64,000 nt of DNA from Schmidtea polychroa (lineage: Eukaryota): positions 14,322,001 through 14,386,000 of the forward strand of contig CM097888.1 of NCBI GenBank assembly GCA_044892525.1, given 5' to 3'. A program made the translations under genes and the position numbers. Within the stretch, counting starts at the first letter, position 1. Every line of letters starts with the position of its first letter. The notes below the pieces were generated by a model. The model was given only the letters and a program-made list of their open reading frames with translations. It was not told the DNA's origin and did not search any database. Positions 9,203 to 34,078 of the stretch are shown in pieces.

Positions 9203-9255
9203 ATTGGACGAAAAGTAATATATAAAGAGCGACAAAAATCTGTAGAGTATCATTC
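9203..9255 (+). promoter_or_regulatory. Candidate LTR core promoter (inverted CCAAT, TATA, Inr)
   Basis: ATTGG at 9203-9207, TATATAAA at 9219-9226 and TCATTC at 9250-9255, with the Inr A 33 nt after the TATA start. Duplicated at 35415-35467. Confidence 0.55.
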
Positions 9256-11533
9256 TAACCCGAAACTCTACAGGTAAAATTTTATCCTTTATATAATCAT
9301 TCTAACCCGAAACTCTACAGGAAAACTAGGAGCAACTCACAAGCACAGATTATTGAACCATATTCATACATCGGATAACATATACATTTACCGGAGATCG
9401 AATTCAGTTAAGCCGAACGAGTCTATCTAAAGAAAACTTATATTACTTTGATCTAACACCTTCGGAGATTTTTGGTAAATTATGTTTTTAGATTTTAGTA
9501 TGATGATTTAAATATTTATTATGAATTTAACAAGACGTTTATAATCCAATAAATTTCATATTTTAAACGAAGGTGTTGCTTTCTCTCTATGATGCTGGCG
9601 ACGACGTCCTCTGGAGTCCGGGTATGATGCAGTTGGATTTTTCGAACGTCCTACGGAGAGGACATTTACGAATATGAACTCAGGAAATTGAAGTGATAGA
9701 ACCAGCCCAAGATCCATATGAATTTAGAAACTAAAGTGATTACTTAATGAATAAGAGATTTATATTAACTAGAGTCATCATGCCCGGAATCCAAATGTCG
9801 TGGTCGCCAGGTGAACATTTATTTAATTGATTTCCTCATAATTCCATTATTTCTATATTGTTTTATTGAATAATTAAATTGTATTATTGCACATTTATTG
9901 AGAATGGAGTTGCGATGAGACGGGTCGAGTCGTCCTTCACACCGGTCCAAGAGCAGTGGGCAGAGATGCGTACTGCCTTGGGTGGGTTGTGAGGAGCGAG
10001 GAAACCATGTGAGATTTAACAAATCAAGTAATTGATTCTTTCATCGAGTGTAATCCACCCATCTTAGTCGTCGAAAACCATCCAATGCAGAAACTTCTGA
10101 GTGACATAGTTTGAATCAACGATACCTTGGGAACTCCAGGAGATATACCATTAAAACTATCATCAGCATTGTGTCCAATCACGTAATTAAATAATCTTTG
10201 ATTTTGAGCCATATTCGTCTTGCATTGAGAAAAGTGACTGTTAGAATGTCTGCCGGAAGGAGTTATTAATTTCGAGTTTTTACGAGAGATTCTCTGTACT
10301 AAGCCCATTTCGTATCTTACAATCTGAAGGTGCTTTGGAAGCTACACCGCCGGGAGGTTAGCGAATAGATCCATCGTCTTGCTTATCGTCGACTCCGAGG
10401 AGACTTAATGATCGACCAACGTCTAGCCGCTGTCATTGATAATAGCTCGATTTAGACATGAACGTAAACATCTCTGGATAGTAGATTAAGACACTGACTG
10501 TGAGTCCGAAAGAAACGGTCGCCAGCAACATCGAGTGAGCGTAGTAGACCGCCGGGAAATCGATTGATAAGATATCTGAAGCCTCAATTCTGAGCGAACG
10601 AGTTGACAGTCTTTATCTCAAAACCAATTAGTAGAGAAAAATCTAAATATAAAATCAATCTTATCTAGTAGATTCGCAATTAACCCACACAATTAGATTC
10701 ATGTGATTTCTGTGACACTCTCTCAGACTCCAACCTATCTAGAAAATCAGCCAGCGATATCATGTCTAGTGTGCAGATAGTGGATAGATTTACATCATAA
10801 TTACATAATGGTAGCAGGGGAGATGGCTAGGCTACATGTACAATCCGATAGCGAGATTACGTCACATTGAATGGTAGAATTGCTGCCCAGTCCAAGAACA
10901 CACATCGATGATAAATTGTACAATGCATGCATATGAACCGACCTGACGACATCTGTTAGCATACATAAAAAGAAAAACTAACACACCACTACTCACAAAC
11001 AAGCGTCGTTATGACGACATTTATGTCGCAAGATTTAAGGTGATCAAATAGCAAATTATGATAAGACTTAAATTGAATTTTGCGGTTCTTTTGTGAAGCC
11101 GATCACGACGTTTAAAACCCAATAGTCACCAGTCATACCGAACTAGGTTTTTGCGACACAACTCGCGCGTAATTTCAGGAATATAGTAGCGCGGGGAGTG
11201 GGGATGCTATTGCTAGGGAAGGATAATTATAATAAATTCGACTGTGATAAATTAATAAAAGCACATTAAATAAAAATGGCCAATTTCAGAAAGATAAACA
11301 TAAAGTCAAAGTTATGATAAATGTATTATTTCGAGTAATTCCGTTTTCTTTTTTCTCTATCAGTATGGATGCTTGCGGACAAATGAGTGTAAATGTTGAC
11401 CAGTGATAAGGGTAAGTGGGTCATTGTCGAGTAGGATGATTGGAAATAGGGTAAAAATTGTAGTCAAAATTTGGAAACGACACGCCAACGATTTTTTTTA
11501 ACTCTACAATTAACAAAACGTCTTGATCTTTAG

Positions 11534-12295
11534 ATGCCTGCTTCAACCGCTTCGAACAAGGATCTTCGTCCATGCTTCTCCTGCGCAGATAAAAACGCAG
11601 TCATAGCCCAACTCCACTTATATATCGGGGCACTGAAAAAGAGAATTGATCTCTATGAAGGCACGTGGTTCTCCCCGCCACAAATGAAGGAGGAGCGCAG
11701 TAAAATTCTTCGGTTGGAACATTGCCGGGACAGCCTCCTAGAGGAGAGTCGCTGTCAAAGATTGACGATCAAGGCGCAATCGGAAGCCCTCCACAAGGTC
11801 TATACGGAGGCAGAATTGGCCAAACGGGTACGAGAATTTCCCGTCTTGGAGGCCAGCAATGTTTTTCCAACTCATCACCAAAGTATTTCCACCGCTACAA
11901 CCAGTTGTTTGGGGCACGGCTCCTATCTGCCGCCTGTTCCAGCACCGGCCTTATACAGTCATCAGCCGCCGGTAGGTGGTCCATCCGACCCTATCTTGGC
12001 TCCAGTTTTAGTGACATCCGTTACAGCACCCGATGCGGACAGTCGCCAACCACAGCGTAAAAGAAAACGGCCGACCCGAGCCGCCAAAAACCAAAGACGT
12101 CGAGAGGCAATCGCGGCTCTCGAGGCGTCGTTATCTGTGGCCAAGTCTTCTCTGGAAAAGTTATCGTCGATACCCTCTATCCCCACAAAGGAGATATTCC
12201 GGGTGATCTCACCCGATGGGGTCCAGCTCGTGCGAGACCGTCGGTTACCGGTTGACATCGACGAGATGATCGCCGAAGGGGAAGTTTTCCCATAA
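11534..12295 (+). CDS. LTR-encoded 253-aa protein (CxxC, coiled coil, Pro-rich linker, Arg-rich motif)
   Basis: ATG directly after TTTAG. The protein is identical in both LTRs, and a diverged homolog exists at 55073-55791 (-). Confidence 0.7.
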   Translation: MPASTASNKDLRPCFSCADKNAVIAQLHLYIGALKKRIDLYEGTWFSPPQMKEERSKILRLEHCRDSLLEESRCQRLTIKAQSEALHKVYTEAELAKRVREFPVLEASNVFPTHHQSISTATTSCLGHGSYLPPVPAPALYSHQPPVGGPSDPILAPVLVTSVTAPDADSRQPQRKRKRPTRAAKNQRRREAIAALEASLSVAKSSLEKLSSIPSIPTKEIFRVISPDGVQLVRDRRLPVDIDEMIAEGEVFP

Positions 12296-12836
12296 TTGGA
12301 CGTGTCGATTTACCCATCTCTCATCCGACGCGATCAAGCTCAACAATCTTTATGAATGACTTAGATGATGCGTGCTTGTACTCTCCTACGTGTTGTGATC
12401 TACAATTTGTGTTCATATGTATCCTCAATTTCATTAATATAATCATAGTATTCGTTATGTTGTCCCGTAAAAGTTATAGAGTAATGAGTGATGTCTTGAT
12501 GAATGAATTGGAATGACCATTGGAGAATGTGGGTCGTCCCCTTGGACCAGGGTCGTACCCAGAATGCATGACGAGTATGGGTAAGACCTTCTTAGGCACC
12601 GGGGAACCTGAACTGAGAGTGGGTCCGTAGTAGTCCTAAGGCAGGGGCTCACCTGCAGATCAACTCCGACCCGTGTGAGCAGCACCAACGTGGGTAGATC
12701 ATCACGGGCTCACATGAGGGAATATTTGTAAATCATGCGGGTTATGTGGGGGAAGGGCCCCGAGCTAAAGGAACATGAGGCCAGCTGCACTACGAATGTC
12801 CGTTTGACTCCTCCCATATACGCCCAACATGATTTT

Positions 12837-12854
12837 TGGGGGCTCAGCCGGGAT
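12837..12854 (+). promoter_or_regulatory. Primer-binding site, tRNA-Pro-like
   Basis: TGGGGGCTCAGCCGGGAT matches 16/18 of the standard tRNA-Pro PBS TGGGGGCTCGTCCGGGAT. It begins 7 nt after the LTR end. Confidence 0.85.
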
Positions 12855-13322: not shown

Positions 13323-13802
13323 ATGTCGGAAGCTAGAAAACATCTACAACAGCTAAGCAGATTCATCGACATAGAAAACGATTCTCTAAAGACGTTAAGA
13401 GAAAAACTGCAACAAATAGAGACCCTAGAACAACAACGCCACGATGCACCTCTGATATCAAAACAAAATTATTTAACCAATAAACTGGGAGCAACAAACA
13501 CCGATACCGACTTGTCTACCCATTACCAATGGATGCAGCAACGACTCGACGACCCCGCTCTGAACATCGAATATGTGAGAATACGCGAACAAGTAAAAAC
13601 TTTGTCTCAAAGAATACGAACATCGATAGTAGAGAAAGCAGCGGTCTTAAGAACCTGTAACATTTGTAAGACGCGACCTGCCAAAATTCTAATTCTACCA
13701 TGTGGACACCTTAGCCATTGTGACGAATGTGCCGTCAGTTTAACGCATTGTTCTTTATGTGTATGTGTGATAAAGGAGAAGCACACGATTTACTTCAGTT
13801 AG
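13323..13802 (+). CDS. IAP-type C-terminal RING protein without BIR domains (159 aa)
   Basis: CNICKTRPAKILILPCGHLSHCDECAVSLTHCSLCVCVIKEKHTIYFS* shows XIAP/cIAP-like C3HC4 spacing and terminal aromatic tail, preceded by a coiled coil. Confidence 0.85.
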   Translation: MSEARKHLQQLSRFIDIENDSLKTLREKLQQIETLEQQRHDAPLISKQNYLTNKLGATNTDTDLSTHYQWMQQRLDDPALNIEYVRIREQVKTLSQRIRTSIVEKAAVLRTCNICKTRPAKILILPCGHLSHCDECAVSLTHCSLCVCVIKEKHTIYFS

Positions 13803-14384: not shown

Positions 14385-14673
14385 TCGAGTTGTTGAATAG
14401 TCCAACCGGTCAGAAGAAGAAGATTGAGCTGTGAATAGTGCCAGCCAGTCGTAAGATCGAGTTGTTGAATAGTCCAACCGGTCAGAAGAAGAAGATTGAG
14501 CTGTGAATAGTGCCAGCCAGTCGTAAGATCGAGTTGTTGAATAGTCCAACCGGTCAGAAGGAAGAAGATTGAGCTGTTGAATAGTGCCAGCCAGTCGTAA
14601 GATCGAGTTGTTGAATAGTCCAACCGGTCAGGAGAAGAAGATTGAGCTGTTGAAAAGTGCCAGCCAGTCGTAA
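14385..14673. repeat. Tandem array, 4 copies of a 72-74-bp unit in the element leader
   Basis: Units start with TCGAGTTGTTGAATAGTCCAACCGGTCAG at 14385, 14457, 14529 and 14603. No variable spacers. Confidence 0.95.
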
Positions 14674-16056: not shown

Positions 16057-16962
16057 ATGACGAATGTGGTAAAAACCGACGAATATAAAGAAAAATTTAG
16101 AGGCGAACCATTCAACGGGAATGCGAACAAGTTGGCAACGTTCATAACAAATTTTGAAGTCTATATCGATGTGTGTGGATGGACATCAGAAGCAATTAGC
16201 AAACGGATGCCGTTGTTTTTATGTGATAGCGCATTAGAAGTGTATCTAGAAGCAAAAGAAAGAAATACGAAGTTAGACAATTGGGAAAGCATCAAAACAT
16301 TTTTGAGAAAAACATTCGGAGCCAGCAAACCAATAAATCAAGCCCTAGGAGAATTAGCGAGTAGAAAACAAAGAGCAAATGAATCCATAACGTTGTATGC
16401 GAGTGAATTGCGAAGATTGGCAAAGAAGGCCATGAACGGAAACTTGCCGGAGGAAAATTTAATTGGTTATTTCATAGAAGGACTGCGCCGAGAAGAGGTA
16501 AGGGCCTCGGTGGGATGTCAAATGTGTAAAACACTAGAGGAAGCCATAGATTGGGCCACGAGATGCGAACTCCACCTCCCGGCACAAATGAATGTCATGC
16601 AAGAGGAAGGAAGAATCGCAACAGCAACGGTAAAAACTGAAAATGGAGAGAACAGCAATCATGAACCAAAAATGAATCAGTTTATACCCGGTGCGCATCA
16701 AATTTTCAAACCACCGCAAGGACGATCAAATGGGAATAACAGTGAACGCAACAACCCGAACAATGGGAATAATTTTAATAATCGACGAAACACGAACGAT
16801 AACAAACAATGCCGAACATGCGGTAAACCAGGACATTGGGATAGAGATTGCTACCGAAACGCAAATTGCAATAGGTGTGGACGACGAGGACACACGGAAA
16901 ATATATGCCAATTAAGAGGATGTTTTAACTGCGGTCAACTAGGTCATATCTCAAGAGACTGT
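16057..16962 (+). CDS. gag: Gag portion: capsid-like domain and three CCHC zinc knuckles
   Basis: PFNG...W...L...A...Y and RKQRANESITLYASELRRLA are retrotransposon gag features. Knuckles CRTCGKPGHWDRDC, CNRCGRRGHTENIC and CFNCGQLGHISRDC span 16810-16962. Confidence 0.92.
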
Positions 16963-19900
16963 CGAGAAAGGAGCCAACAACAACGACCACCACAGCGAAA
17001 TAATAACTATGCACCAAATCCGCAACGACAAAGTAATCCTAGTGAGGGAAAGCAAATGAATGTGATGCAAGAAATTTCACAAATGAAGCAGATGATGCAA
17101 CAAATGATGAGACCGAGACAAGAGCAAGTACCACAACAAACCCAGAATATACGCATGATGAGGAGCACCGAGAATCTTAACAACTATGAAGTACAACAAC
17201 ATGCACAAGAATGGCAAAGACTACAAGCTGAAGAAGAGAGGATAAAAAGAGAGCGAATCCAGCAGCGACAAGAACAACCATTACGAATAAATATGATGAG
17301 AATGGCAAGGGAGATAAAAGAGCAATATTGTTACAATTACGGTAAAAATCCAAGAGTTGTACCTATGAGCGAACCAGAGAAACCGAAAGAAACAATTCCA
17401 GCAGCAAAAAAGGAAAATTCAACAACATCGCTAAAAGGAAATCAGAGAATTCAGAAAATATTTTGGAAAAAGATAAAAGATAAAATCGAAAGAGAAAATG
17501 AAAAAACAAAAACAGAAGCAGAAGCGGAAAATGACGAAAATGAAAAACAGATTAATCATCTAAATCATGATATGATACGAGGATTAGACTCAGAGGAGCT
17601 AACGATACTCGAGAACAAAAAATTAAAGAAAGTACCAAGAATGAGAAATTTACGAATTAATATGATGAGGACAACAAAGAAGGTGTTGTCAACAGATGAC
17701 GATGAGGATTATGTGAGTAGCCTTGGTGGAGAAATGTTACAGTTAAATGAAAATATCGACCAACTAAGAGAAAAGATCGGAGCAGATGAGGATGAAAGTG
17801 AAAGCAACGTGACAAGCGAAAGCGAAGACGAGAATATCGAAATGAAATTGAGAAAAGAAAGAGAAGAAGCGATAAAACAAGTAAAGGAAATACTTCCAGT
17901 GGTGGTAAGAAACCAGGAATTCATTGACATCATACCATACAGACGCTTCACACAAAGGATAATGAAACTAGAAAGAAACGAAAAAGATCTAATACCAAAC
18001 GAGGAAAAAGCGATAATAAAGAAGTATATGGAAAAAATGAAACAAGCGGAGACAACACGCTATGTAATAAAAATCGGAACGAGCAAAGGACTCGAGAGAA
18101 TATGGATAAAAAATGCAGTTACAGACGATCTTTTCGATTGGATAAGAGAACATTTGGGCAGCTCGAGAAAGAAAGAATACCTGTATCAATATCAAGGAGA
18201 ACAAATCAAACCAGACATGCACCTAATAGATGCATTGATCTGGCCAGGAGAAACTCAAATATTGAAATTGCATAAAGAGAAGCAACCAGCGAATATTCAC
18301 GAATGGGCTAAAGACGCCAAGGCCGAGTATGACTTTAACATCAAGCTGAAGCTGGAGCAAATAAAACAATGCACCTTGCGACGAAATCTAGATAAATTAA
18401 TCAAACAAATCCAAGAACAAGTTGAAGATAACTGGGATTTGCTCATAACAAGACGAACTGCAGACATGCATGAACTAATGAGCCGACTGCGAGATACAGA
18501 ACTGCTCAGGATGAGCGATTGGAGAACCATAAATTTGATCCACAAATACGGAAGATTAAAAGAAACGCAACCGCAGAAATTAGAAATAACCATATGGTTA
18601 CCAAATGAGGAGAAACGACGAATAAAGATGAGTAATCAGAGTACGGTGGATGACTTAGTAACCAAGATAAACCAAGAGATAACGGAAAAAGTACGAAGCG
18701 AGAGCAGCGATGGTATGATAGATGACGTAGTCATGATGTACGATAAAATAATACTACGGGCTGAAGACGATACCTCGTTAAGTGAAATGGGAATGTGGGA
18801 TAATCATCAAATCATCAGAATATTGCCCATGGACGAATTCCGAACAAGAGATGTAACATACCAGAAAGAAATACGAGACAGGATGAAAACGCTATATCAA
18901 AAATCAGTAGAGATAATTGAAATTCATCAACAGTGGCTAAAAGAAAAAGAGCTTCAAGGAAAAATAAAGAAACTAAGTGTTAGATCCTGCAGACGAACCC
19001 CATGGGAAAGGATGTGGAATGCGGAAAACAAAGAATGGGAAATCAGGAAAGGGATTTTCGTGGAAACAGACATTGGTGAGATAGAAAGCGAATCAGAAGA
19101 AGAGGAAGATGAACCTCCAAAATACGAAGAGGACGAAATAAAATCGACATCGGACGACGAAAGCGAAACGGATGTTACGTCAGAAAGTGAAACGGAAACC
19201 AGGCATATTCATGCGATGAGAAAGAAGGAACGCGAATACGCCGACATAGACGGGGAAGAGGCAAAAGAAGCGAGAGAACGAGAAGAGAAGGAAAGATATA
19301 AACAATTAGGTGATATCTTAGCAACGGGAGCAAAAAATCAAAAACGTCAAGTAATAGCATTGGCTAACATCATCCTAAAGACATCAGAGAATATCCACAA
19401 TCTAAGAGAAATGGCGAAAGCGATTGAGGAATACCGACAATATAACGAATGGTACCCAGAACAGCTAGAACAAATTATTAGGAAATGGAGAAACCAAGAA
19501 TGGGCACAAGATACCCAGGAAAGGTATCGTATCCGAGTCAAGTATCCCGACAAAAGCATTGAGGATATAGAAGTACATCCAACAACAAAGATCAGAGAGT
19601 TAAAAAAGAAATTAGCATACGAAACTCCATTTCACCTACAACTATTCGGAAAATCGTTGGATGATAATGCAGATGTCGGAATAACACCCATGAGATTGGG
19701 GGAGATCAATGTATTGACAATGGCAGAAACATTGGGAAAACCGATTAAAAGGAAGAGCAAATCAAGTAAACCTACGAAAGGTAGCTTGAGTACACCAAGC
19801 CCTAACAAAGTAGCGAGTAAATCGAATGAAACCGAGGAAATCGAGGAAATTATATTGGAAGACAGCGATGAAGGAGCGGGAGAAAGATCACCAATTCTGG

Positions 19901-22900
19901 TAAGATGGCCGACAGGAGCCGAAATATGGACAACGAGCCAACCATCAACTAGCTATCAACAACCACATAAACTGAACATAGAGGAAATTATCGATAATAC
20001 AACAGAAACCGAAACCGACGAACAATTCCAACGACAGAAAGGACCAACGAAAGCAACACCAGAAGGTCAAACAGACAAAATAATAGACGAATGGAACGAA
20101 TGGCTGAGAAACAACGATAGCTCATTGCCCAGAACAGATAATGAGAGAAACCCGAAGTATGAAACGACAAGAGAAGCCGGAACAATGATGGAAAAACGGG
20201 CAAAAGGAAGACCTAGGAAGCAAGGAGAAAAACCAGAATTCAAAACTAGAGAACAACTGAAACAAGAACAAGGACAAGTCAGATTAGAGAAACTGGATAA
20301 AATAGTGTGGGACTTAAAAGAAGCTCAACCAACAATCGAGAGAGGCGAAAAATGGATACGAGAGCTAGTAAAAGATATGCTAATAATAACGAACCCACAA
20401 TTGCGACGGTTATGGCAACGAAAAGTAGCAAGCGTAGATGCCAGACAACTATGGAATACAATATCCGGAATAATTCCGAAATTAATCAAAGAGAAGACAA
20501 AAACCACTAAAACCGATTGGGAAGAGACAAGAAGAGTAATTGAACAATTAACTTTAAACGCAAACGACGACGAACATCATTTAGTAGTATTAACGTATCT
20601 AATGTACAATTTGATGGGATTAGCAGCAAGGAAAATACCTAACAAACAATTCGCAAATCATGTAGAAATGACCGTTACAATCATTGAAAATACAATCGAA
20701 CCACATATTATCCGCGCCGGTGGGTGGAAAAGACTCATACAAGCGCCACGAAAAAACGAGCAAGAGAGATCAATGCAAATTCGGTTGAAGAAATTGCTAA
20801 ACGAGCTGGAATGGGAATTACCATTGAAAGACCCAGCCAGCAGAAAAGCGTCGATTAATTCACTAATGATGACCATGATGATATGGATGCTCTGCACTAG
20901 TGGAGCCGCGGGATTTACTATTTACGACTGTGACAATTCAATAATAGGAGAAAGATACTCCCTGAGAGATATAGAGGAATGTAGACAGGCATCTCCGAAT
21001 AAATTAGATATAGTAAAAAAGAAAGTCTCCTATCACGTATACCAAGAATCAGATTTCATTAGAACGCAAGCTAGAGAATGCGTAGTATCGAAGAAAGTGT
21101 TGGCATACTACTGTGGACAATACTCATATTCAACCCTTATATTACCGGGATTAGATAAAGAAATAGTACCTATACAACGGGAAGACTGTAAAGAACTTTT
21201 TAGAACCGGAGCGATGAGAATCAGGGATGGAGTAACCATACACGGACAAAGCGGAATGATCAAGACGGAAAGTATCTATGTAGCCGGACGAGTAAAATCA
21301 ACTGATGGATCATGTAACGGAGGCACATATACGATCAGAGGAGAAGTGATCTCGGGAGTAGTAGTAATTGAGTCCTACACAGTGGAGTTGAAGGAATACG
21401 AAGCACAATTCGACGCAAACAACTATCAAATGAAAACCAACCCAGCATGCAGAGCTACGGAAAACGTGTGTAGAACGGGAATTTCGACTATAATATATGA
21501 AGCTAACACCCAAAAATGCCGACTGCAATTGTTAAAAAGTGCTCTATTCAATGAAGTAAAAGGAGAAATTTACGAAAACGAGGATGACGATGAAGAGAAT
21601 GGGAACGTAAGGATGCGAAATGGGAAACCAGTCCCGCCATCCCCCAAAGAAAAGAGACTCACAACCCAAAAAACACCAACGGCATTAATTACAGATGATC
21701 CGGACATCGGCATGAGATTCATTAGAGAAAAAGAGACCACCAAATGTGACAGCATAGTATATCGGACGAACTACGCAGGTATCTACATGTCAAGGCAAGT
21801 AATAGACCGAGCAGTGGGAAAGGTAGCAACAGAGGACGTAAAATTGTACCTGTACGCTAATAACAAAATGGACTTTTTATTTCATCGAGGACAAACGACA
21901 ATGCAAAAAGTGTATTACGATCTTATACAAAATGACTGTTCATTGAATAAAGAGATACTAAAAACAAAATTAGCTATCGCAATAACACACCCAGATAACA
22001 CAATGCCATCACTCCCGTTACCGGATGGACATTTTGGTAGAATGGTGGGAGAGGTAATGTATACATATGCATGTACCAAGACATTTGCGCGACTGCCAAG
22101 AAAGCCCACAATTCCACCAGGGAAATGTGCAAACGAATTAGAAATTAGCTACAAAGGGCGGAACAGATTCGTTCAACCAGTCACTCGAATTATGAACCCA
22201 ATTGGATTTTATCCGAACACCTTTAACTGTTCAAATGCATACGGACCGTTATATGAAAAACCCGATGGGAAATGGATAATGTTACCGGTAAAAACCGAAG
22301 TACAAGAACCTAAAAAGTTTGGATTAATAGAACTCGCAACAGAGCAAGACTTCAAACCAATTGATGTGTCAAAAGCGGGTATGTACTCACCAGAGGATTT
22401 AGAAACGGCACGATTAAACGTATTATTCCCAGCAAGGCGAGAATCCATTCTATCAAATATGGTTACCATAACTGGGGGAACGAATTTCCAGTCAGGCCCC
22501 AATTACGAACTATTATTGTCACCCGATCATTTTCAACAAGCCACGTCAAACATGATGAAAGCAATGTGGGGAAGATTTCTAGTGTTCGGTCAAATGATGG
22601 CAGGAATATTGGGAATCATCTTAATTATCCAGATTGTTAGAGTGATATTGACTCAAATGCTAGCGTGTTTTGATATCTATAAGAGAGAAAAGAAAGTAAA
22701 TTGGAAGTTGATAGTAGGTTTTCTACCATTTTTGGCAAAAACAATGGTGTTGCACGGTCATTCTAAAGATATACACAGAATAAAACGATTAATCAAAATA
22801 CTGACAAAAATAAAAGGGACTGACGAGGAGGTCGGTAGACGATTTCGGAAAACAATGTATGATGAAGCAACAAGGACGCAACTGAAAAAGAACAAACCAA

Positions 22901-25900
22901 AATTTTTGGACAGATTTAGAAATCGGTCAAACAGCAGCGATAGCGATGATGACGACAACGGGAATGACAAATACCCATATCCAAGTAGAAACCCGAATGA
23001 AAAGCCAATAGAAACAGCGCCATATTGGGAGAAAGAAAAAACAAATACCTGGATAACCAACGGAAGTTATATACCACCAGATATCGTTGGACAACAAACA
23101 GCTTTGACCATGACACAAAATATGTATCCACAGTTACCAAGTCAACCAGGGATGAACTATATGCCGAACCGAAGAACGAAAAGCGTAGACCAAGCGGATG
23201 ACGTAAGAACGATAGCAGTGATGAGTTCACCAGGAGGCGCGGCAGTAACAGTCATGATCCAAATCAACGGGAAAGAGACAAGCGCAATGATAGATACCGG
23301 AGCAAATGTATCAGCAATAGCAATCAACCAAATACCCAGTAAATGTTGGAAAGACATCGAACAAACAACTATCCATATCATCGCATGCAGTAAAGAAACC
23401 GTAGACGTAGTAGGAAGATGGTGGACTACGTTAAGATATCAAGATAACGAAATTGAAACGTATCTAGCGGTGATACCCAAACTGAGTGAACCATGTATAA
23501 TCGGAACGGATTTAATGCCAGAATTGTTCAAGGAAGTAGTGATCGATTTAACAACAATGTGTCTAAAGGACAAAACGGGTAGAATATGCAAGATGAACGC
23601 AATAATTAGATGTCCGGAGAAAATAATTGTACCAGCAAAATCACAGATGATATGTCAAATAAAAGTGGATGCAGGAATGGAAGGAGAAGTCATTTTTGAG
23701 CCAAGCAAATCATTCGAAAAACGACGAGAATTACCATTAGCAAGAGAAATAATAACAATAAATGAAGACGGGGAAATACCAATCAACATCACAAATTTCG
23801 AGGAAGAAGATAAAATCATATATGAAAATGAAAGATTGGGTAGATTGACACCCATGATAGACATCGAATTACCAAAAATCACCAACGAAACAACGAAAGC
23901 TGACGAATTATGGATAATTGACAGCACCTTGCTAACGGAAAAAGAAAAGGAAAGACTTCAACAATTATTGATAGAATATAAAGATATATTCGCAATTTCG
24001 GATTTAGATTTGGGAGCATGCGATGTTACATTACACGCAATACCATTAATAGACGAAACTCCAATCGCACTACGTCCATACAAACTAGCAGAGAAGCAAA
24101 AAGAGATAGCCGAAGCAGAAGTACAAAAAATGCTAGATGCACAAGTGATCGAACCAAGTTGTTCGCCATGGCAATTTCCCGTAGTCATGGTGAAGAAAAA
24201 AGATGGTACTCAGAGATTCTGTATCGATTATCGGAAATTAAATGCAGTAACAAAAAGAGACACATACCCGTTACCAGACATCAATGAGATGTTACTTATG
24301 TTACAGGGGGCCGCATATTTTACATCTTTAGATCTGAAAAGCGGATATTGGCAGATCAAAGTCAAAGAGGAAGACAAAGAGAAAACAGCATTCACATTGG
24401 GCCGAGATCTATACCAATTCAGGAAAATGCCGTTCGGACTGACCAATGCCCCAGCATCATTCCAGAGATGTATGAATTTTGTCACACATGGGATCAAGCA
24501 GTGTATGGTATATATTGATGATTTATTAATATATTCAGCAACATTCGAACAACATTTGGAAGATATCAGAAACGTGTTCGTTCGATTACGACAATGGAAA
24601 TTGAAACTCAAACCATCCAAATGTGATTGGGCAAAAGAAAAGGTTACGTTCTTAGGACACATAGTGTCAGCAAAAGGCAAAGAACCAGATCCAAGAAACA
24701 TAGAAAAAATAAAAACATGTCCAGCACCAAAAACTGTCACCCAAGTTCAAGAATTTCTCGGATTATGCGGATATTATCGAAAATTCATCAAAAACTATGC
24801 AGGTATTGCGAAACCAATACAGGACTTAGTGAAAAAGGATATTTCATTTATTTGGGGTGCAGAACAACAAAAAGCATTTGAGACATTGCGAGATAAATTA
24901 ATTGAAGCTCCAATACTGGTACATCCTGATTTCAAGAAACCGTTCTTATTAGCAACAGATGCAAGTGGATATGCAGCCGGAGCAATATTAGGACAACTGG
25001 ATGAAGAGGGAAAAGAAAGAGTGATTGGATACTACAGTAGAACGTTTAAAAAGCATGAGAAAAACTATTCCGTAACCGAGAGAGAAGCATTAGCAATTAT
25101 ACAAGCGATTAAACATTTTCGATATTTGTTGTGGGGACACGAAATATGTATCACAACAGATCATCAACCACTAGTATGGCTTGGCCAACACAAAGAAGCT
25201 TCAAGTAGATTGATGCGATGGGCAATGCAGTTACAAGAATATTCACCGTTCATAAAATTCAAAGCGGGAAGAGCGAATGCCAATGCGGATTGTATGTCCA
25301 GATTTATCTTTCCAGATTTAGTAGATCACGAAACGCAACGAATATGTCTGATGGTAGCAGAAGATCTAGATTTTTGCCAATTACGGAAAGACCAACAAGA
25401 GGATACAGAGTTGAAGCAAATCATTGAATATGTGAAAACAGGGAAAGCAGAGGTATATGAGAAAGATCAAAAATTGAAGGAGCATATGGATAAACATCGA
25501 CATCGATATATTATCGAGAAAGACTGGTTGTTGATAATGGATGGAGAAAAAAGACTGATGTGCATCCCCGAGAATAGACGTAAAGAGCTGCTAACACAAT
25601 ACCATGACGGAAGACTCGGAGGACATATGTCATCTAAAAAGACGTTGGCACGAATGAAACAAAAGTATTTTTGGCCTACATTGACCGAGGATGTAACGGA
25701 ATGGGTGAAAAATTGCATAACTTGCGCAACCAGAAAAAACACGGGAACCAAATGGAAGGCACCATTAAAGCCAATGCCAGTACCAGCAGAACCAATGACC
25801 ATGATATCAATGGACGTGGTCGGTCCACTACCAGAATCAGATAGAGGAAATATATATATATTGGTAATCACAGACTATTTGACGAAATTCCCCGAAGCAT

Positions 25901-28900
25901 TCGCTATGGCAGATCAGAAAGCAAGAACAATCGCAAAAATACTAGTAGAGGAGATATGTTGTCGATATGGAACACCAAAACAGATATTAACTGACCAAGG
26001 AACAAATTTCATGAGCGAAATAATGAGCGAAGTCACCAACTACTTCAAGATCGCAAAATTAAGAACATCACCGTACCATCCACAAACTAATGGTATGACG
26101 GAAAGATTCAATGGAACACTGATTCAAATGTTATCAAATTATGTCGATCGTCATCAACGCGACTGGGACGAGTATATAAAATTATGTTTAATGGCTTACA
26201 GAATGTCGATTCACGCGTCCACAAAGATGAGTCCGTTCAAGTTGATGTACGGCAGAGAATGCAATATGCCAATGGATTTGGAGTATCAGCCACCAATATC
26301 ACAGTACATGGAAATAGACGATTATGTAACCAAGTTCAAGGAAAGAATGCAGGAAATCTGGGAAACTGCAGGATTGAATATAAAATTTTATCAGGAAAGT
26401 TACAAAGATCTACATGATAGAAAGAAAAACGTCAAACAGCATACGTTTCAAACAGGCGATTGGGTGATGATCGAAACACCAGAATTAATTCTAGGAACCA
26501 CCAAAAAATTACAACGAAACGGTAAAGGTCCGTATGAGATCCTATTCATCGGAGAAACCAATGTAAGAGTACGATTGGTAAACAACCCCTTCACAAGGCC
26601 AATATATGTAAATGTGGCACGATGTAAGCCAATACCGAAAACAGCCACCAGCCAGCCGGAAGGGCGAACATTAACAACAAGATCACAAACATATAGAATA
26701 AATATGTTACAGCAGATAAACGAACCAACAGGTAACCGATTGGGGTTACAACCATCAGAAGCCGAGAAAATCATAAAGGAAGTGAAAGCTAAAATGCCCG
26801 GATGGGCAGAAGACAGATTAGATTTTGAGATATTGGGAGGTCTGCTAACAATGATCGAAAATTATGCAAACCGAGAAAGGACACACCCATTACTCAGGGT
26901 AGTAAAAAGTCAATGGCCTATATTATTTACGATCACAGACCATTATGGAGATACACCGCTGCACAAACTTTTAAAGGTCGGGAATAATGAACAAATACTG
27001 GAAACGATCGAAGCATTTCGCGATTGTAACGTTTCAACAGATCAAGAAAATAACCAAGGTTACACTCCACTAATGATAGCAGCCAATCGGGATAAAGCTA
27101 AAGATATTATCATCGCATTACTTGAAACTGGGTCAAAGATAACCACACAAGACCACAACCAGAAAAATGCACTACATCATGCAATCGAAGGGAAAAGTAC
27201 GGAAGCCTTCATAATCTTAGTAGATCTATTATCATATGAGGATAATAGGGAGATAGGAAACATGTATGACGGGTTATTAACTGCAATCAAAGAGAAATTA
27301 ATAATAATTACTGGAATACTAATTGCGTGGAGGAACCCGATCAAAAACGATTATATGGTAGATATAAACGAAACATTTACCAAAGGAGAAAATACCTTGA
27401 TGAGGGAAGCGATGAGAGGACATCACCTATTCGAAATTCCAAATCAACTACTACAACGTGGCATAAAGTTTTCAAATCACAAAGACGAACAACTAATCAG
27501 AAAACGAATTACCAACTTCGAAAAAGCTATATCTCAATTTACCGATAAAGTACAAGTAAAATTTTGGGAAACCGTGAGTGTATTATATATGATGGAAACT
27601 ATGAACAACATTCGAGAAAACTACCTAAGTATTATTCAAGTGCTTACGGCGGAAGAACGCATTAACAGTTCAAACAAGAAAAAGATAAAAATAAAGAAAG
27701 TAAAAACAAGGGAGTCCGAGGAACAAGTCGATCAAATAATAACCGAGATAGCAACAACAAGTAAACCCAAGATAATAAACTCAGACCAGGAGATAATAAT
27801 ACGCAAAGCCAAAGAGGTGTTCTTTGAAGAAATGCAAGATCTATCCGATGAAGCGATACTAGCAAAAATAACAAAAACAGTACACACCTACGCAAGAGAC
27901 CAGACCACAAATCTAGACATAGAAAAAATAAAAACATTTATACCACTAGCATTCACCTTACCAACAAAAGACTCAAGAACACCATTACAACAAGCCATTT
28001 TAGCAGCAAAAGAAAACAGAGCAATAACCATCATAAGAATCCTGGGAGACTTCGGAGAAGAATCTAATGCAAAAAACGAACAAGGAGAAACAGCAATAAT
28101 GTATGCAGCCATAACAAATATACACCCGAAAACATTACATATACTACATCGATCGGGATCAAGACTGGACGAAATATCAAACGAAGGAAATTCTACCATG
28201 GATTGGGCAACCATACAACCAAACTTGGAAATGATTAGATTCATTTGTAAAAATGCTACAAGAACTGAGGTAGAAAATATCTGTAAAAACACGTCACAGT
28301 TCCAATGGAACACGATACGGATGAACTTAGAAGCCATGAAGTTATTGCTAACATGGAAAATACCGCAAAGCAATAAACATGCAATAAATATAAATGAGTT
28401 CTACGAAAACGGAGAAAATGCTATGGTTAAAAATACACTAACAAAAGGAGGAACTCCGAAAATCATAATGATCGTATTGAACAGAGAAGACCTCAAATTC
28501 ACGCAAAATCTAAACGAACAAAAGCGGATTGGAAAACATCGCCGTATACAATTGAGAGAACTGGTAAAAGAATGGAATAGAAAGAGACATGTAGCAACAG
28601 GCAGAAAAGAGTTTGAATTCGAGGCAAAATTAGCAAGGAATAGAGTGTTAACGGCATATCGCAGATTATTGAACGACATAAATGTCGAGGACGACATTTC
28701 AAACGATAGCGGGGGAGATAAAGACGATAAAGACGACGATAATAATGAACAAGGTCGAAGCGGGAATGGAGAGAAAGAGAAATCAGAGGAAAATAATCAA
28801 GGGAATAACGACTCAGGTATAAAAAAGGAGGAAAATAAACCGGGAAGCCGAACAAAGGAAGAGGAAAAGACGAATAATGGGAAACAGAGGGTATGCCCAC

Positions 28901-29904
28901 TTTTTACCAACAAGGAAATGGAAACAAATATGATGGTAATGATACTCATACTAACAATGATAGAAATGATAACAGCCCACGGTGGAATGAGAACGATAAA
29001 AGAAGCCAAGGAAACGGAAAACAAAGACAACAAGGAGAAGGAACTAAAGCAAGAAAAGAAGAAGCAAGTACGAGAGCAACAATGGGATTTAAAAGAAGAA
29101 TGGGATCTAAAAGAAAGATGCATACTAGGAAGATGTATGTCGAGAGCATATCGGAGACTAGTATTAATAAATGAAGATACAGAACCAATAACGGAAGTAA
29201 GAATACAAGAAGCATACCGGAATCGAGACGGGAAGAGAATAACTAAAGTCAAAGGGAAGGAGGTACACCTGAGAAAAGGAGGTGAGGTAGTGATAACGCA
29301 ACTCCAGCCAAGAAAAGAACACAAAGTCTGCATTTCAAGATTAGGACCGGGTGAAGACTGTCTACAATATGTAACACAGCAACAACCTCCAAAAGAATAC
29401 ACAGTATGCATCTGGAGAAACGATACAGCGAGAGAATGTCGACGATACCCTGGGAGAAGAGGGAGGAAAAGAAAAATCAATGACGAAAAAGATGAGCAAG
29501 GAAAACGCAAGAAAACCGATGAAAACCAGATGGAGAAAATACAAAGAATGGCAAAGGAAGGTATGAACGAGGAAATAGCAAGAATACGAGGAATGATGAA
29601 AGGAAATGGCAAAGACGGTAATCTAAAAAGCACAGAAGCAATATCAACAATAGCGAACAAGGAAAAAGCAGAAATTATAAGCGTAAAACAGATGATGTGG
29701 ATCAGCGGCATAATAATAACAGGGGCCTTTTTAATCATAACGGGGGGGACAATAAAAATAATCAAAGATAGACGGCATCGCGGAGAACTAGAAATGGCCA
29801 GAATAAGAAATTTTCAACATCGTGTAAGACGACCAAGTAATATCAAGCAGGAACAGTGGGTGGAGGCCTGGAATGCTCAGCGCCCTCCAAGCTCACGTAT
29901 ATAG
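16057..29904 (+). CDS. 4615-aa single-ORF polyprotein Gag-UBL-Bcl2-Env-PR-RT-RH-IN-ANK-TM
   Basis: Uninterrupted 13.8-kb ORF with recognisable motifs listed in the sub-features. Confidence 0.95.
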   Translation: MTNVVKTDEYKEKFRGEPFNGNANKLATFITNFEVYIDVCGWTSEAISKRMPLFLCDSALEVYLEAKERNTKLDNWESIKTFLRKTFGASKPINQALGELASRKQRANESITLYASELRRLAKKAMNGNLPEENLIGYFIEGLRREEVRASVGCQMCKTLEEAIDWATRCELHLPAQMNVMQEEGRIATATVKTENGENSNHEPKMNQFIPGAHQIFKPPQGRSNGNNSERNNPNNGNNFNNRRNTNDNKQCRTCGKPGHWDRDCYRNANCNRCGRRGHTENICQLRGCFNCGQLGHISRDCRERSQQQRPPQRNNNYAPNPQRQSNPSEGKQMNVMQEISQMKQMMQQMMRPRQEQVPQQTQNIRMMRSTENLNNYEVQQHAQEWQRLQAEEERIKRERIQQRQEQPLRINMMRMAREIKEQYCYNYGKNPRVVPMSEPEKPKETIPAAKKENSTTSLKGNQRIQKIFWKKIKDKIERENEKTKTEAEAENDENEKQINHLNHDMIRGLDSEELTILENKKLKKVPRMRNLRINMMRTTKKVLSTDDDEDYVSSLGGEMLQLNENIDQLREKIGADEDESESNVTSESEDENIEMKLRKEREEAIKQVKEILPVVVRNQEFIDIIPYRRFTQRIMKLERNEKDLIPNEEKAIIKKYMEKMKQAETTRYVIKIGTSKGLERIWIKNAVTDDLFDWIREHLGSSRKKEYLYQYQGEQIKPDMHLIDALIWPGETQILKLHKEKQPANIHEWAKDAKAEYDFNIKLKLEQIKQCTLRRNLDKLIKQIQEQVEDNWDLLITRRTADMHELMSRLRDTELLRMSDWRTINLIHKYGRLKETQPQKLEITIWLPNEEKRRIKMSNQSTVDDLVTKINQEITEKVRSESSDGMIDDVVMMYDKIILRAEDDTSLSEMGMWDNHQIIRILPMDEFRTRDVTYQKEIRDRMKTLYQKSVEIIEIHQQWLKEKELQGKIKKLSVRSCRRTPWERMWNAENKEWEIRKGIFVETDIGEIESESEEEEDEPPKYEEDEIKSTSDDESETDVTSESETETRHIHAMRKKEREYADIDGEEAKEAREREEKERYKQLGDILATGAKNQKRQVIALANIILKTSENIHNLREMAKAIEEYRQYNEWYPEQLEQIIRKWRNQEWAQDTQERYRIRVKYPDKSIEDIEVHPTTKIRELKKKLAYETPFHLQLFGKSLDDNADVGITPMRLGEINVLTMAETLGKPIKRKSKSSKPTKGSLSTPSPNKVASKSNETEEIEEIILEDSDEGAGERSPILVRWPTGAEIWTTSQPSTSYQQPHKLNIEEIIDNTTETETDEQFQRQKGPTKATPEGQTDKIIDEWNEWLRNNDSSLPRTDNERNPKYETTREAGTMMEKRAKGRPRKQGEKPEFKTREQLKQEQGQVRLEKLDKIVWDLKEAQPTIERGEKWIRELVKDMLIITNPQLRRLWQRKVASVDARQLWNTISGIIPKLIKEKTKTTKTDWEETRRVIEQLTLNANDDEHHLVVLTYLMYNLMGLAARKIPNKQFANHVEMTVTIIENTIEPHIIRAGGWKRLIQAPRKNEQERSMQIRLKKLLNELEWELPLKDPASRKASINSLMMTMMIWMLCTSGAAGFTIYDCDNSIIGERYSLRDIEECRQASPNKLDIVKKKVSYHVYQESDFIRTQARECVVSKKVLAYYCGQYSYSTLILPGLDKEIVPIQREDCKELFRTGAMRIRDGVTIHGQSGMIKTESIYVAGRVKSTDGSCNGGTYTIRGEVISGVVVIESYTVELKEYEAQFDANNYQMKTNPACRATENVCRTGISTIIYEANTQKCRLQLLKSALFNEVKGEIYENEDDDEENGNVRMRNGKPVPPSPKEKRLTTQKTPTALITDDPDIGMRFIREKETTKCDSIVYRTNYAGIYMSRQVIDRAVGKVATEDVKLYLYANNKMDFLFHRGQTTMQKVYYDLIQNDCSLNKEILKTKLAIAITHPDNTMPSLPLPDGHFGRMVGEVMYTYACTKTFARLPRKPTIPPGKCANELEISYKGRNRFVQPVTRIMNPIGFYPNTFNCSNAYGPLYEKPDGKWIMLPVKTEVQEPKKFGLIELATEQDFKPIDVSKAGMYSPEDLETARLNVLFPARRESILSNMVTITGGTNFQSGPNYELLLSPDHFQQATSNMMKAMWGRFLVFGQMMAGILGIILIIQIVRVILTQMLACFDIYKREKKVNWKLIVGFLPFLAKTMVLHGHSKDIHRIKRLIKILTKIKGTDEEVGRRFRKTMYDEATRTQLKKNKPKFLDRFRNRSNSSDSDDDDNGNDKYPYPSRNPNEKPIETAPYWEKEKTNTWITNGSYIPPDIVGQQTALTMTQNMYPQLPSQPGMNYMPNRRTKSVDQADDVRTIAVMSSPGGAAVTVMIQINGKETSAMIDTGANVSAIAINQIPSKCWKDIEQTTIHIIACSKETVDVVGRWWTTLRYQDNEIETYLAVIPKLSEPCIIGTDLMPELFKEVVIDLTTMCLKDKTGRICKMNAIIRCPEKIIVPAKSQMICQIKVDAGMEGEVIFEPSKSFEKRRELPLAREIITINEDGEIPINITNFEEEDKIIYENERLGRLTPMIDIELPKITNETTKADELWIIDSTLLTEKEKERLQQLLIEYKDIFAISDLDLGACDVTLHAIPLIDETPIALRPYKLAEKQKEIAEAEVQKMLDAQVIEPSCSPWQFPVVMVKKKDGTQRFCIDYRKLNAVTKRDTYPLPDINEMLLMLQGAAYFTSLDLKSGYWQIKVKEEDKEKTAFTLGRDLYQFRKMPFGLTNAPASFQRCMNFVTHGIKQCMVYIDDLLIYSATFEQHLEDIRNVFVRLRQWKLKLKPSKCDWAKEKVTFLGHIVSAKGKEPDPRNIEKIKTCPAPKTVTQVQEFLGLCGYYRKFIKNYAGIAKPIQDLVKKDISFIWGAEQQKAFETLRDKLIEAPILVHPDFKKPFLLATDASGYAAGAILGQLDEEGKERVIGYYSRTFKKHEKNYSVTEREALAIIQAIKHFRYLLWGHEICITTDHQPLVWLGQHKEASSRLMRWAMQLQEYSPFIKFKAGRANANADCMSRFIFPDLVDHETQRICLMVAEDLDFCQLRKDQQEDTELKQIIEYVKTGKAEVYEKDQKLKEHMDKHRHRYIIEKDWLLIMDGEKRLMCIPENRRKELLTQYHDGRLGGHMSSKKTLARMKQKYFWPTLTEDVTEWVKNCITCATRKNTGTKWKAPLKPMPVPAEPMTMISMDVVGPLPESDRGNIYILVITDYLTKFPEAFAMADQKARTIAKILVEEICCRYGTPKQILTDQGTNFMSEIMSEVTNYFKIAKLRTSPYHPQTNGMTERFNGTLIQMLSNYVDRHQRDWDEYIKLCLMAYRMSIHASTKMSPFKLMYGRECNMPMDLEYQPPISQYMEIDDYVTKFKERMQEIWETAGLNIKFYQESYKDLHDRKKNVKQHTFQTGDWVMIETPELILGTTKKLQRNGKGPYEILFIGETNVRVRLVNNPFTRPIYVNVARCKPIPKTATSQPEGRTLTTRSQTYRINMLQQINEPTGNRLGLQPSEAEKIIKEVKAKMPGWAEDRLDFEILGGLLTMIENYANRERTHPLLRVVKSQWPILFTITDHYGDTPLHKLLKVGNNEQILETIEAFRDCNVSTDQENNQGYTPLMIAANRDKAKDIIIALLETGSKITTQDHNQKNALHHAIEGKSTEAFIILVDLLSYEDNREIGNMYDGLLTAIKEKLIIITGILIAWRNPIKNDYMVDINETFTKGENTLMREAMRGHHLFEIPNQLLQRGIKFSNHKDEQLIRKRITNFEKAISQFTDKVQVKFWETVSVLYMMETMNNIRENYLSIIQVLTAEERINSSNKKKIKIKKVKTRESEEQVDQIITEIATTSKPKIINSDQEIIIRKAKEVFFEEMQDLSDEAILAKITKTVHTYARDQTTNLDIEKIKTFIPLAFTLPTKDSRTPLQQAILAAKENRAITIIRILGDFGEESNAKNEQGETAIMYAAITNIHPKTLHILHRSGSRLDEISNEGNSTMDWATIQPNLEMIRFICKNATRTEVENICKNTSQFQWNTIRMNLEAMKLLLTWKIPQSNKHAININEFYENGENAMVKNTLTKGGTPKIIMIVLNREDLKFTQNLNEQKRIGKHRRIQLRELVKEWNRKRHVATGRKEFEFEAKLARNRVLTAYRRLLNDINVEDDISNDSGGDKDDKDDDNNEQGRSGNGEKEKSEENNQGNNDSGIKKEENKPGSRTKEEEKTNNGKQRVCPLFTNKEMETNMMVMILILTMIEMITAHGGMRTIKEAKETENKDNKEKELKQEKKKQVREQQWDLKEEWDLKERCILGRCMSRAYRRLVLINEDTEPITEVRIQEAYRNRDGKRITKVKGKEVHLRKGGEVVITQLQPRKEHKVCISRLGPGEDCLQYVTQQQPPKEYTVCIWRNDTARECRRYPGRRGRKRKINDEKDEQGKRKKTDENQMEKIQRMAKEGMNEEIARIRGMMKGNGKDGNLKSTEAISTIANKEKAEIISVKQMMWISGIIITGAFLIITGGTIKIIKDRRHRGELEMARIRNFQHRVRRPSNIKQEQWVEAWNAQRPPSSRI
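18058..19725 (+). CDS. Three ubiquitin/SUMO-like folds inside the polyprotein (~18058-18280, ~18574-18835, ~19519-19725)
   Basis: For example RIRVKYPDKSIEDIEVHPTTKIRELKKKL...LQLFGKSLDD parallels ubiquitin [29 protein letters not shown]...RLIFAGKQLED. Confidence 0.6.
20280..20740 (+). CDS. Bcl-2-like helical domain
   Basis: All-helical segment ending in BH2-like TIEPHIIRAGGWKRL (GGW at 20719-20727). BH1 is degenerate. Confidence 0.55.
20851..22671 (+). CDS. env: Envelope-like fusion glycoprotein (chuvirus/Monjiviricetes-type, class III-like): signal helix, Cys-rich ectodomain, TM
   Basis: Signal-like LMMTMMIWMLCTSGAAG is followed by FTIYDC...YSLRDIEEC...REC-V-KKVLAYYCGQYS and about 14 Cys. 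TM FLVFGQMMAGILGIILIIQIVRVIL lies at 22576-22650. Confidence 0.75.
23227..23560 (+). CDS. pro: Retropepsin aspartic protease
   Basis: AMIDTGANVS (DTG at 23293-23301) and the IIGTDLM motif. Confidence 0.93.
23960..25310 (+). CDS. pol: Reverse transcriptase and RNase H
   Basis: RFCIDYRKLN, LDLKSGYWQI, MPFGLTNAPASFQR, YIDD (24511-24522), LATDASG, EREALAI and TTDHQPL. Confidence 0.97.
25560..26640 (+). CDS. int: Integrase (HHCC, DDE core, GPY/F)
   Basis: HDGRLGGH...CITC, SMDVVGP, TDQGTNF, NGMTERFN and GKGPYEI. Confidence 0.96.
26935..28260 (+). CDS. Ankyrin-repeat region fused after integrase (two clusters)
   Basis: GDTPLHKLL, GYTPLMIAA and QKNALHHAI, then SRTPLQQAI, GETAIMYAA and GNSTMDWAT. 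Confidence 0.85.
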
Positions 29905-30432: not shown

Positions 30433-30521
30433 ATATAACCTAAAATAGCAATGTAAATAACTGTAAATAAAAATACGAAACTGTACCAGTAACGAATATA
30501 TGTATATATATAATTATAGAA

Positions 30522-31394
30522 ATGGATAAGCGACAACGAGAAGAATTCAAAGAAATTGTCGAACAAGTCAGAAAGTCCACCACAATTCGAATACACAACC
30601 ATGTAACGTGTGGAATATGCAAGAACTTATTAAGAGAACCTCACCAAACCCGATGTGGATGCAGAATGTGCAGAGAATGTGTAGAGGAGGTAATAAAGAA
30701 GGGACCACAATGGTGCCCAGTATGCAAAGAAACAATGATAACAAGTTTGGGAGATACAAACGAAGATAAAGCAGCTGTAAAAGATATGATGAATGCAAAC
30801 CTAGGATGCAAAAACACCCCATGTAATTGGCGAGGAGTGATATGGGAAGTGAGGCAACATATGGAGCAATGTGAATATAAAATCAGTCAATGCAAACGTT
30901 GCCAAGAAGAGATTAAAGTCAATGAAGAAGCAGAACATCAAAGTCGATGCGAAGAAAGACTGGAGAAATGTGAGTATTGCGGAGAAACCGACACCTGGAA
31001 AAAACTAATCAGTCAACATCACAACATACAAGAGGAGAAAGTGTGCGCAGAATTCAGAGGAGAATGCCCCAACAAATGCGATAAACCCGGAGTAATAAAA
31101 CTCGCTCAACATCTGAAAGAATGTGAAAGGAAAAAGATAAGGTGTGTGTTAGGAAAATGGGGATGTCAGAAACAATTACACCGAGGGGAATTACCCCAAC
31201 ATCTAGCAGAAAACGTATCAACACACGCGGAAATATGGTCAACGGTATTACAAGAAAACGAAAGGAAAACCGAAAACTTAGAAAGAGAAATAGTCTCGCT
31301 AAAAGCGTTGGTAAAAGAACTATTGGAAGAAAAGGAAGCATTCGAAGAGGCGAGAACAAGCACAAAGATACAAACAGATCTAGTAGAAACTTAG
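30522..31394 (+). CDS. TRAF homolog N-terminal part (RING, TRAF zinc fingers, coiled coil)
   Basis: CGICKNLLREPHQTRCGCRMCREC...CPVC, CKNTPCNWRG...HMEQC and CVLGKWGC...HL are TRAF-type motifs. Ends at TAG 31392-31394. Confidence 0.88.
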   Translation: MDKRQREEFKEIVEQVRKSTTIRIHNHVTCGICKNLLREPHQTRCGCRMCRECVEEVIKKGPQWCPVCKETMITSLGDTNEDKAAVKDMMNANLGCKNTPCNWRGVIWEVRQHMEQCEYKISQCKRCQEEIKVNEEAEHQSRCEERLEKCEYCGETDTWKKLISQHHNIQEEKVCAEFRGECPNKCDKPGVIKLAQHLKECERKKIRCVLGKWGCQKQLHRGELPQHLAENVSTHAEIWSTVLQENERKTENLEREIVSLKALVKELLEEKEAFEEARTSTKIQTDLVET

Positions 31395-31400
31395 AACATT

Positions 31401-31910
31401 ATGGTGAAAGAACTACATCAAAAAGTAAGCGAATTAAACCTCAACGAATTAATACCAACGGCTCCATACATATGGAAGATAACGGGAGTAAAAGAGAAGA
31501 TGCAGAGAGCGAGAAATGGAAAGGATACAACATTACTAAGTCCAGCATTCTACTCATGGAAAAACGGGTATAAAATGAAAATGAAAGCATACCCCAATGG
31601 GGATGGAAGTGCATATGGAACGCATTTCTCAGTATTCTTCTTGATATGCAAAGGGCTATACGACGAGTTAATAGAATGGCCATTCAAAGCAAAAATAGAC
31701 CTCGCAATGATGAACTATCAAAGTATACATGAACAGAGTTTCCATACAGCGGGAAGCCTCGTATGTTACCAAAGACCCTTGGAAGAAGAAGGACCAGCAA
31801 CTGGAGCACCGAATTTCATCCTACAGCGGAAAGTAGAAGACATGACGAGAAACGACACTATATACATAAAAATAGCGGTGAGGCGAGACGGGAAGAGTAG
31901 GACTGAGTAG
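31401..31910 (+). CDS. TRAF-C/MATH domain protein, in frame with the TRAF N-part
   Basis: YIWKITG, SPAFYS...GYKM...YPNGDG...THFSVFF...G.YD..IEWPF, YQRP and DTIYIKIAV. Confidence 0.92.
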   Translation: MVKELHQKVSELNLNELIPTAPYIWKITGVKEKMQRARNGKDTTLLSPAFYSWKNGYKMKMKAYPNGDGSAYGTHFSVFFLICKGLYDELIEWPFKAKIDLAMMNYQSIHEQSFHTAGSLVCYQRPLEEEGPATGAPNFILQRKVEDMTRNDTIYIKIAVRRDGKSRTE

Positions 31911-33163: not shown

Positions 33164-33332
33164 AGATGAAGGGAAAGATAAAAAATATAAAAATCGGGAC
33201 CTGTATCCCAACCAAAAAATTAATAGTACAGTAAAAGTATGAAAGGGACTGTAACCCTGATTATAAAATAACATACAAATGTATAAGTATAAGCCGCACT
33301 GTAGCGCACTATTAATTGTAAATATTGTAGAA

Positions 33333-34022: not shown

Positions 34023-34078
34023 TTAAAGATGAATGATCAATGTAAATAATTGTAAATAAAAAATTTTCGTATAGTAGT

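Follow-up and report, generated by a model that had tools for sequence, protein, structure and literature searches.

The 64,000-nucleotide stretch of Schmidtea polychroa DNA analyzed here (the window) carries a retroelement of 30.3 kb with long terminal repeats (LTRs) of ~4.1 kb. Its features are the following.

8735..12829, + strand: 5' LTR with TG...CA ends, 99.9% identical to the 3' LTR (3 mismatches, 1 gap)
12836..12853, + strand: sequence like a primer-binding site (PBS), found 6-7 nt past the 5' LTR here and in 5/5 sister copies
13323..13802, + strand: accessory ORF of 159 aa with a C-terminal RING finger (PF13920, E 2.3e-8)
16057..29904, + strand: ORF1 polyprotein, 4,615 aa from the first Met, in a frame open from 15730
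16210..16965, + strand: Gag capsid (Retrotrans_gag, PF03732, E 4.3e-10) and three CCHC knuckles (PF00098, E 1.9e-12)
20527..20727, + strand: weak Bcl-2-like domain (PF00452, E 0.036, below cut-off) that immediately precedes env and has a GGW motif
20863..20913, + strand: internal signal-peptide-like segment with small residues at its end (hydropathy and conservation), with a predicted signal-peptidase site before nt 20914
20914..22563, + strand: predicted class III fusogen ectodomain, gB/chuvirus-like, 550 aa with 14 Cys (Pfam and predicted fold)
22564..22671, + strand: membrane-proximal helix and transmembrane (TM) anchor, conserved in relatives (19-residue hydropathy 2.53 at 22594-22650)
22672..23250, + strand: predicted cytosolic tail or linker to the protease; a second, short stretch of hydrophobic residues lies near 22705
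23251..23526, + strand: aspartic protease (PR), DTG at 23293, aa 2413 (PF00077, E 8.3e-8)
24190..26082, + strand: reverse transcriptase (RT), RNase H (RH), and integrase (IN) in Ty3/gypsy order (PF00078, E 3.3e-37; PF17917, E 1e-39; PF17921, E 3.7e-21; PF00665, E 1.1e-12)
27001..28146, + strand: ankyrin repeats in two clusters (PF12796, E 4.7e-18)
28930..29904, + strand: C-terminal module, in which a Cys-containing middle lies between a second signal-like segment and a TM (hydropathy)
30522..31910, + strand: TRAF-like accessory gene with RING, Zn fingers, and MATH (PF00097, E 4.1e-5; PF21355, E 1.8e-25)
32126..34714, + strand: three more accessory ORFs of 345, about 230-247, and 211 aa, with no Pfam match above cut-off
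34946..39041, + strand: 3' LTR, paired with the 5' LTR at 99.9% identity

By its LTRs, PBS-like site, PR-RT-RH-IN order, and gypsy-type Pfam profiles (PF17917, PF17919, PF17921, and PF03732 in ORF1), the element is classed as a Ty3/gypsy LTR retrotransposon (Metaviridae), and the near-identity of its two LTRs marks the insertion as recent. The PBS-like site may resemble a tRNA-Pro PBS; no tRNA genes were found in the 64-kb window. A 4-bp target-site duplication is present in all four sister copies with both ends recovered, and none is found at the window copy. The six bases that follow the 3' LTR (39042-39047) are the same as those after the 5' LTR, so that this copy resembles what is left of a tandem or rearranged insertion. 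In five sister copies (among L021-L035) with an identical env protein, the LTRs align to 8735-12829 only patchily, at ~65-80% identity; such comparison suggests that LTR subfamilies may have been swapped onto a conserved coding core. A 253-codon ORF lies within the 5' LTR at 11534-12295, and in the 5' untranslated region a 72-74-nt unit occurs four times in tandem (14360-14673).

Six accessory ORFs begin 0-6 nt past a YAG in an AT-rich stretch (11533, 13320, 30519, 32119, 33330, and 34077, by a crude score), so the element probably uses splicing, and the accessory messages are likely to be spliced or trans-spliced, as in complex retroviruses. The TRAF-like gene has a stop at 31392-31394 in the window copy and no internal stop in any of the five sisters examined. 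Flanking DNA has a GC content of 25-30%, which, like the relatives of the element, suggests a planarian host. Host-like ORFs encode LUC7 (40943-41548, E 6.4e-49) and a RING protein (58891-59826), and outside the element a 1,463-codon frame without a Pfam match occupies 47130-51521 on the minus strand.

The stop-free frame of ORF1 extends over 15730-29904 on the plus strand (4,724 codons), with its first Met at 16057, and its domains follow in the order Gag, ubiquitin-like, Bcl-2-like, Env, PR, RT, RH, IN, ankyrin, and C-terminal membrane module. An earlier note on this DNA had placed a fusion glycoprotein in frame between Gag and the protease, with neither stop nor frameshift. The single open frame bears this out and the order is as described; however, Env does not adjoin Gag. 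Between the zinc knuckles, all three of which can be read from the translation, and the Env signal lie ~1,300 aa of acidic or coiled regions, two weak ubiquitin-like matches that are below the Pfam cut-off, and the Bcl-2-like domain. Recounting from Met 16057 recovered every landmark given in that note: YDC at aa 1623, a membrane segment at ~2171-2200 (given as a TM at aa ~2174), the protease DTG at aa 2413 (nt 23293), and the ~14 cysteines, with 14 in the mature ectodomain and 16 across 20851-22671, where the signal and the stretch past the TM contribute one more each. The linker between protease and RT (23590-24000) gave no Pfam match to dUTPase. This linker is strongly conserved (pN/pS 0.02), and Burro elements are described as having a dUTPase-like domain at the same place (PMC6431247).

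The identity of Env is supported by both profile and predicted structure. Over 20851-22671 it matches PF24664 (Monjiviricetes_fusion) at E 4.6e-74 with a score of 250 against a cut-off of 27 bits, and the profile has matches in 0 of 14 control genomes, which together show that the match is not due to chance. The ectodomain model (117-row alignment, 550 aa) has a pLDDT of 90.1 and a pTM of 0.76 and contains a long central helix at 311-358. When it was compared with the PDB by Foldseek, all 37 matches listed were herpes gB (best E 3.1e-14, TM ~0.42), and VIA-align gave a Z of 9.7 and an rmsd of 7.7 over 416 aligned residues. The best predicted viral structures were chu-like glycoproteins (E 1.2e-36, TM 0.72, 18% identity). 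A single-sequence search of the PDB with Env found nothing (best E 1.2), and a profile search yielded weak gB matches (E 0.016). By its modeled fold, Env is a class III fusogen, so that both the chuvirus-type glycoprotein read at 20851..22671 in the earlier note and its anticipated structural kinship with class III fusogens hold. The fold is common to the Env model, herpesvirus gB, and jingchuvirus G, with sequence identities of 10-12% to herpesvirus gB and 17-21% to chu-like G; unlike those proteins, Env is encoded here within a retroelement polyprotein. Its cysteines are nearly invariant and are common to free-standing glycoproteins. The ectodomain has only one N-glycosylation sequon, and no canonical furin site is evident.

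The relatives described here come from the best 150 of 1,004 homologous matches at E 0.001; a word-index protein search, which covered 5,014 candidates (333-1,063 aa), turned up no relative. The top relatives are long polyproteins, and a protease family follows env in 9 of 20 scanned at E 1e-4, with two more added when the threshold was relaxed. P0003, P0016, and P0018 each combine a Gag marker, env, and protease in one chain, and P0017 has a knuckle, a ubiquitin-like match, a Bcl-2-like match (likewise weak and likewise preceding env), and env in the same order as the window. Of 30 relatives inspected, 16 have at least 140 residues upstream of env. Each of these carries a hydrophobic segment immediately ahead of its YDC-like start, spaced like the N-terminal signals of free-standing glycoproteins. 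The best 11-residue hydropathy of the window segment is modest (2.05), below that of all 16 (2.15-3.68). A protease motif lies 112-355 aa past the TM in 9 of these 16. Two or three aspartic-protease domains per polyprotein were seen in P0002, P0003, P0004, P0005, and P0018, and in P0113 immunoglobulin domains stand in frame before a gB-type env.

Other embedded envs, which share 28-42% identity with the window env, are its nearest sequences. In a quick, midpoint-rooted tree of 62 rows (the window, 16 embedded, and the first 45 of 104 free-standing sequences, after 30 of the 150 matches were dropped for partial cover), the window env falls in a 14-row clade of 13 embedded sequences and 1 fragment (SH-aLRT 100), apart from free-standing glycoproteins; four other embedded rows are placed among the free-standing ones. 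This clade, and the same layout in relatives, indicate that the arrangement is old and shared rather than a private capture.

Within its own genome the element is abundant and its env conserved. All 72 env copies scored, out of 2,848 candidates, which makes the copy counts lower bounds, are 99-100% identical, and 4 carry a stop in env. At least 40 of the 72 lie in frames of at least 4,700 codons, and 2 of those 40 have a stop inside the match. Loss of the signal and TM in sister copies, which the earlier note had named as evidence against its reading, was not seen: signal segment, TM, and frame to the protease are intact in 20/20. Relative to these 20 copies the Env ectodomain shows a mean of 44.5 silent differences per copy and 0 replacement differences (pS 0.124). 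The copies were chosen for the best protein match to env, which pulls env pN towards 0; such picking cannot explain a pS of 0.12. The pN/pS values are 0.024 for the Bcl-2-like region, 0.034 for the tail, and 0.022 for the protease, with 0.02-0.08 overall for neighbors outside the selection of copies. When copies were ranked instead by tail DNA, 37 of the 39 others were also in the env-ranked list, as matched by coordinates. From these substitution patterns, env is judged to be under strong purifying selection. That env is real, functional-looking, and kept by selection is well supported; its conservation indicates that it is used, but not for what.

A second family in the same genome, found by the Pfam profile, has an env 36-37% identical to that of the window. 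In the 30 copies examined (68 of 2,581 candidates scored), a signal-like segment is present in 30/30, pN/pS is 0.14 over 29/30, and the order Bcl-2-like, env, protease is as in the window in the one copy in which it was seen. Contigs of four sequencing runs (three presumed RNA) that fall on 15000-32000 cover 30, 22, 30, and 12 of 30 bins, a cover that is no measure of expression or splicing.

We consider it probable that the window holds a recent insertion of a giant Ty3/gypsy element of Burro type (a gB-type GAG-ENV-POL "errantivirus") in whose polyprotein env has long been a functioning part, and that this polyprotein is threaded through the endoplasmic reticulum (ER). As the chain is translated, Gag and the Bcl-2-like domain would remain cytosolic, and the internal signal would start ER translocation of the ectodomain. 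Signal peptidase would then cut before nt 20914, freeing the Env N terminus, and the TM would halt transfer, so that PR-RT-RH-IN would be back in the cytosol, at first tethered to the Env tail, until the protease of the element freed the cytosolic domains. Env would trimerize and fuse membranes, allowing particles or capsids to pass between cells. The signal and TM roles here rest on hydropathy and conservation. Against this reading stand the modest hydropathy of the signal segment, the lowest of those scored, and the need of herpes gB for partner glycoproteins. A motif resembling I/M-N-x-M recurs at ORF1 domain borders, including just before the signal (15 versus 6.3 and 13 versus 4.1 over shuffles), and was defined post hoc; among 12 relatives, one pattern reached p < 0.05 in 2 and the other in 0. 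As a general protease site it was dropped, being post hoc and not enriched in most relatives, and it is kept as a lead.

The earlier note had instead seen in env an independent capture in an unusual position. That the element itself recently took up a chuvirus glycoprotein, or that env is a passenger insertion, now appears very improbable. Chu-like glycoproteins are indeed the nearest viral structures to Env, and the published GAG-ENV-POL elements are described as not forming one clade in Pol trees (PMC13524379), so the arrangement may have had more than one origin. Against this stand the well-supported clade that groups the window env with other embedded envs, the layout shared by the second family, and the strong purifying selection on env. 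Nor is there support for the position as a new event of this element: published accounts give the same layout for Burro in planarians (PMC6431247) and for elements of flatworms, nematodes, and bryozoans (PMC13524379).

Other possibilities concern how Env is made and what it does. Expression apart from the polyprotein, by splicing, trans-splicing, or an internal start at a Met cluster, would do away with the 1:1 ratio of Gag, Env, and Pol suggested in the earlier note. The signal segment does hold five Met codons, and the YAG-preceded accessory ORFs make splicing available to the element; however, by the same crude score no T-rich acceptor-like site lies near the Met codons of the signal, the nearest candidates listed being ~240 nt upstream and G-rich, and sister copies and relatives alike keep the frame open through the two junctions of env. 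With a YAG site at six accessory ORFs and none at the env signal, reading of env from the long message fits, and we regard separate expression as distinctly unlikely. A reading that departs from the preferred one only at the last step is that Env is inserted in the membrane and acts inside the cell or between touching cells, without a free infectious particle; its roles would be ER or endosome budding, anchoring of Pol and capsid, or cell-cell fusion. The covalent joining of Env to Gag and Pol and the single sequon of the ectodomain are consistent with such roles, and neither Burro particles nor a processing model turned up in the open-access literature searched. A complete class III ectodomain whose cysteines hardly vary is, on the other hand, what entry proteins keep, and we hold these intracellular or contact roles to be plausible, if somewhat short of an even chance.

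The end of ORF1 may add to the membrane functions of the element. A second signal-like/TM pair spans 28930-29763, and the module that contains it (28930-29904) has no Pfam, PDB, or Atlas match and gave a single-sequence model with a pLDDT of 54; from hydropathy it is possibly a second type I membrane protein. On a bolder reading, Burro-type elements would be working enveloped retroviruses whose polyprotein, threaded through the ER like that of a flavivirus or alphavirus, yields a gB-like fusogen and a C-terminal type I protein as its possible attachment or trigger partner, with copies from differentiated tissue reaching stem or germ cells. We put this forward as speculation that is rather doubtful at present. 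The proposed topology, in which an internal signal is followed by stop-transfer and Pol stays tethered to Env, gives concrete proteomics predictions. The family, being young, high in copy number, and with env under strong selection, offers a test case for gB-type env in retroelements, and it occurs in a host group in which RNAi derepression has been described: BURRO1 is transcribed and is derepressed on smedwi-2 RNAi (PMC8532177).

Env-bearing elements of other kinds provide context. Cer1 was rejected as a precedent, as its extra ORF lies after pol and is not env. Dezordi et al. 2020 are said to have found mosquito BEL/Pao elements with a chuvirus glycoprotein. That glycoprotein is of the same family as the window env (as treated in PMC13524379); the mosquito elements differ in being BEL/Pao rather than Ty3/gypsy and in having env after integrase, a layout seen in P0075. 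Sacco et al. 2022, as cited in PMC13524379, described noncanonical nematode endogenous retroviruses with a glycoprotein before pol in a metavirus. In Chary & Hayashi, eLife (PMC13524379), GAG-ENV-POL elements of gB type are reported from flatworms, nematodes, and bryozoans, with nine flatworm elements listed, six of them from S. mediterranea (Smed_errantivirus_1-6); that paper argues for an ancient origin and states the entry mechanism as unknown, and the words "polyprotein" and "Burro" are absent from its main text. The window element resembles these gB-type errantiviruses in GAG-ENV-POL order, class III env, and many near-identical copies. Its env domain I-II is ~57% identical to the nearest listed row, Smed_errantivirus_5 (107 of ~187 columns, counted by hand), a value low enough to mark a distinct family.

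The closest counterpart is the planarian Burro group, for which Arkhipova & Yushenova 2019 (PMC6431247) describe env in frame between BCL2 and protease, with Burro env giving matches to mononegavirus glycoproteins. Because this layout has been in print since 2019, the present finding is a rediscovery; what it adds is the internal signal-like segment kept in 16/16 relatives that have at least 140 upstream residues, purifying selection on env, and a second family of the same layout in the genome. As described in PMC6431247, Burro and GYPSM1 share with the window element a length above 30 kb with LTRs, one long ORF (near 4.8-5.1 kaa, against 4,615 aa here), Gag with three CCHC knuckles, Ubi/SUMO-like, BCL2, env, and PR-RT-RH-IN regions, and the presence of ankyrin and TRAF/MATH. 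BIR, a Burro trait, gave no family match in Pfam scans of ORF1 and of ORFs of at least 150 aa. TRAF/MATH is a separate downstream ORF in the window, lies inside ORF1 in Burro1, and is upstream in the D. tigrina element (PMC6431247). By size, LTRs, layout, and cargo, compared with Burro1-4 by description, the window element is assigned to a Burro-type family, and with its layout already known, it is a further family of the Burro-type, or gB-type GAG-ENV-POL, kind.
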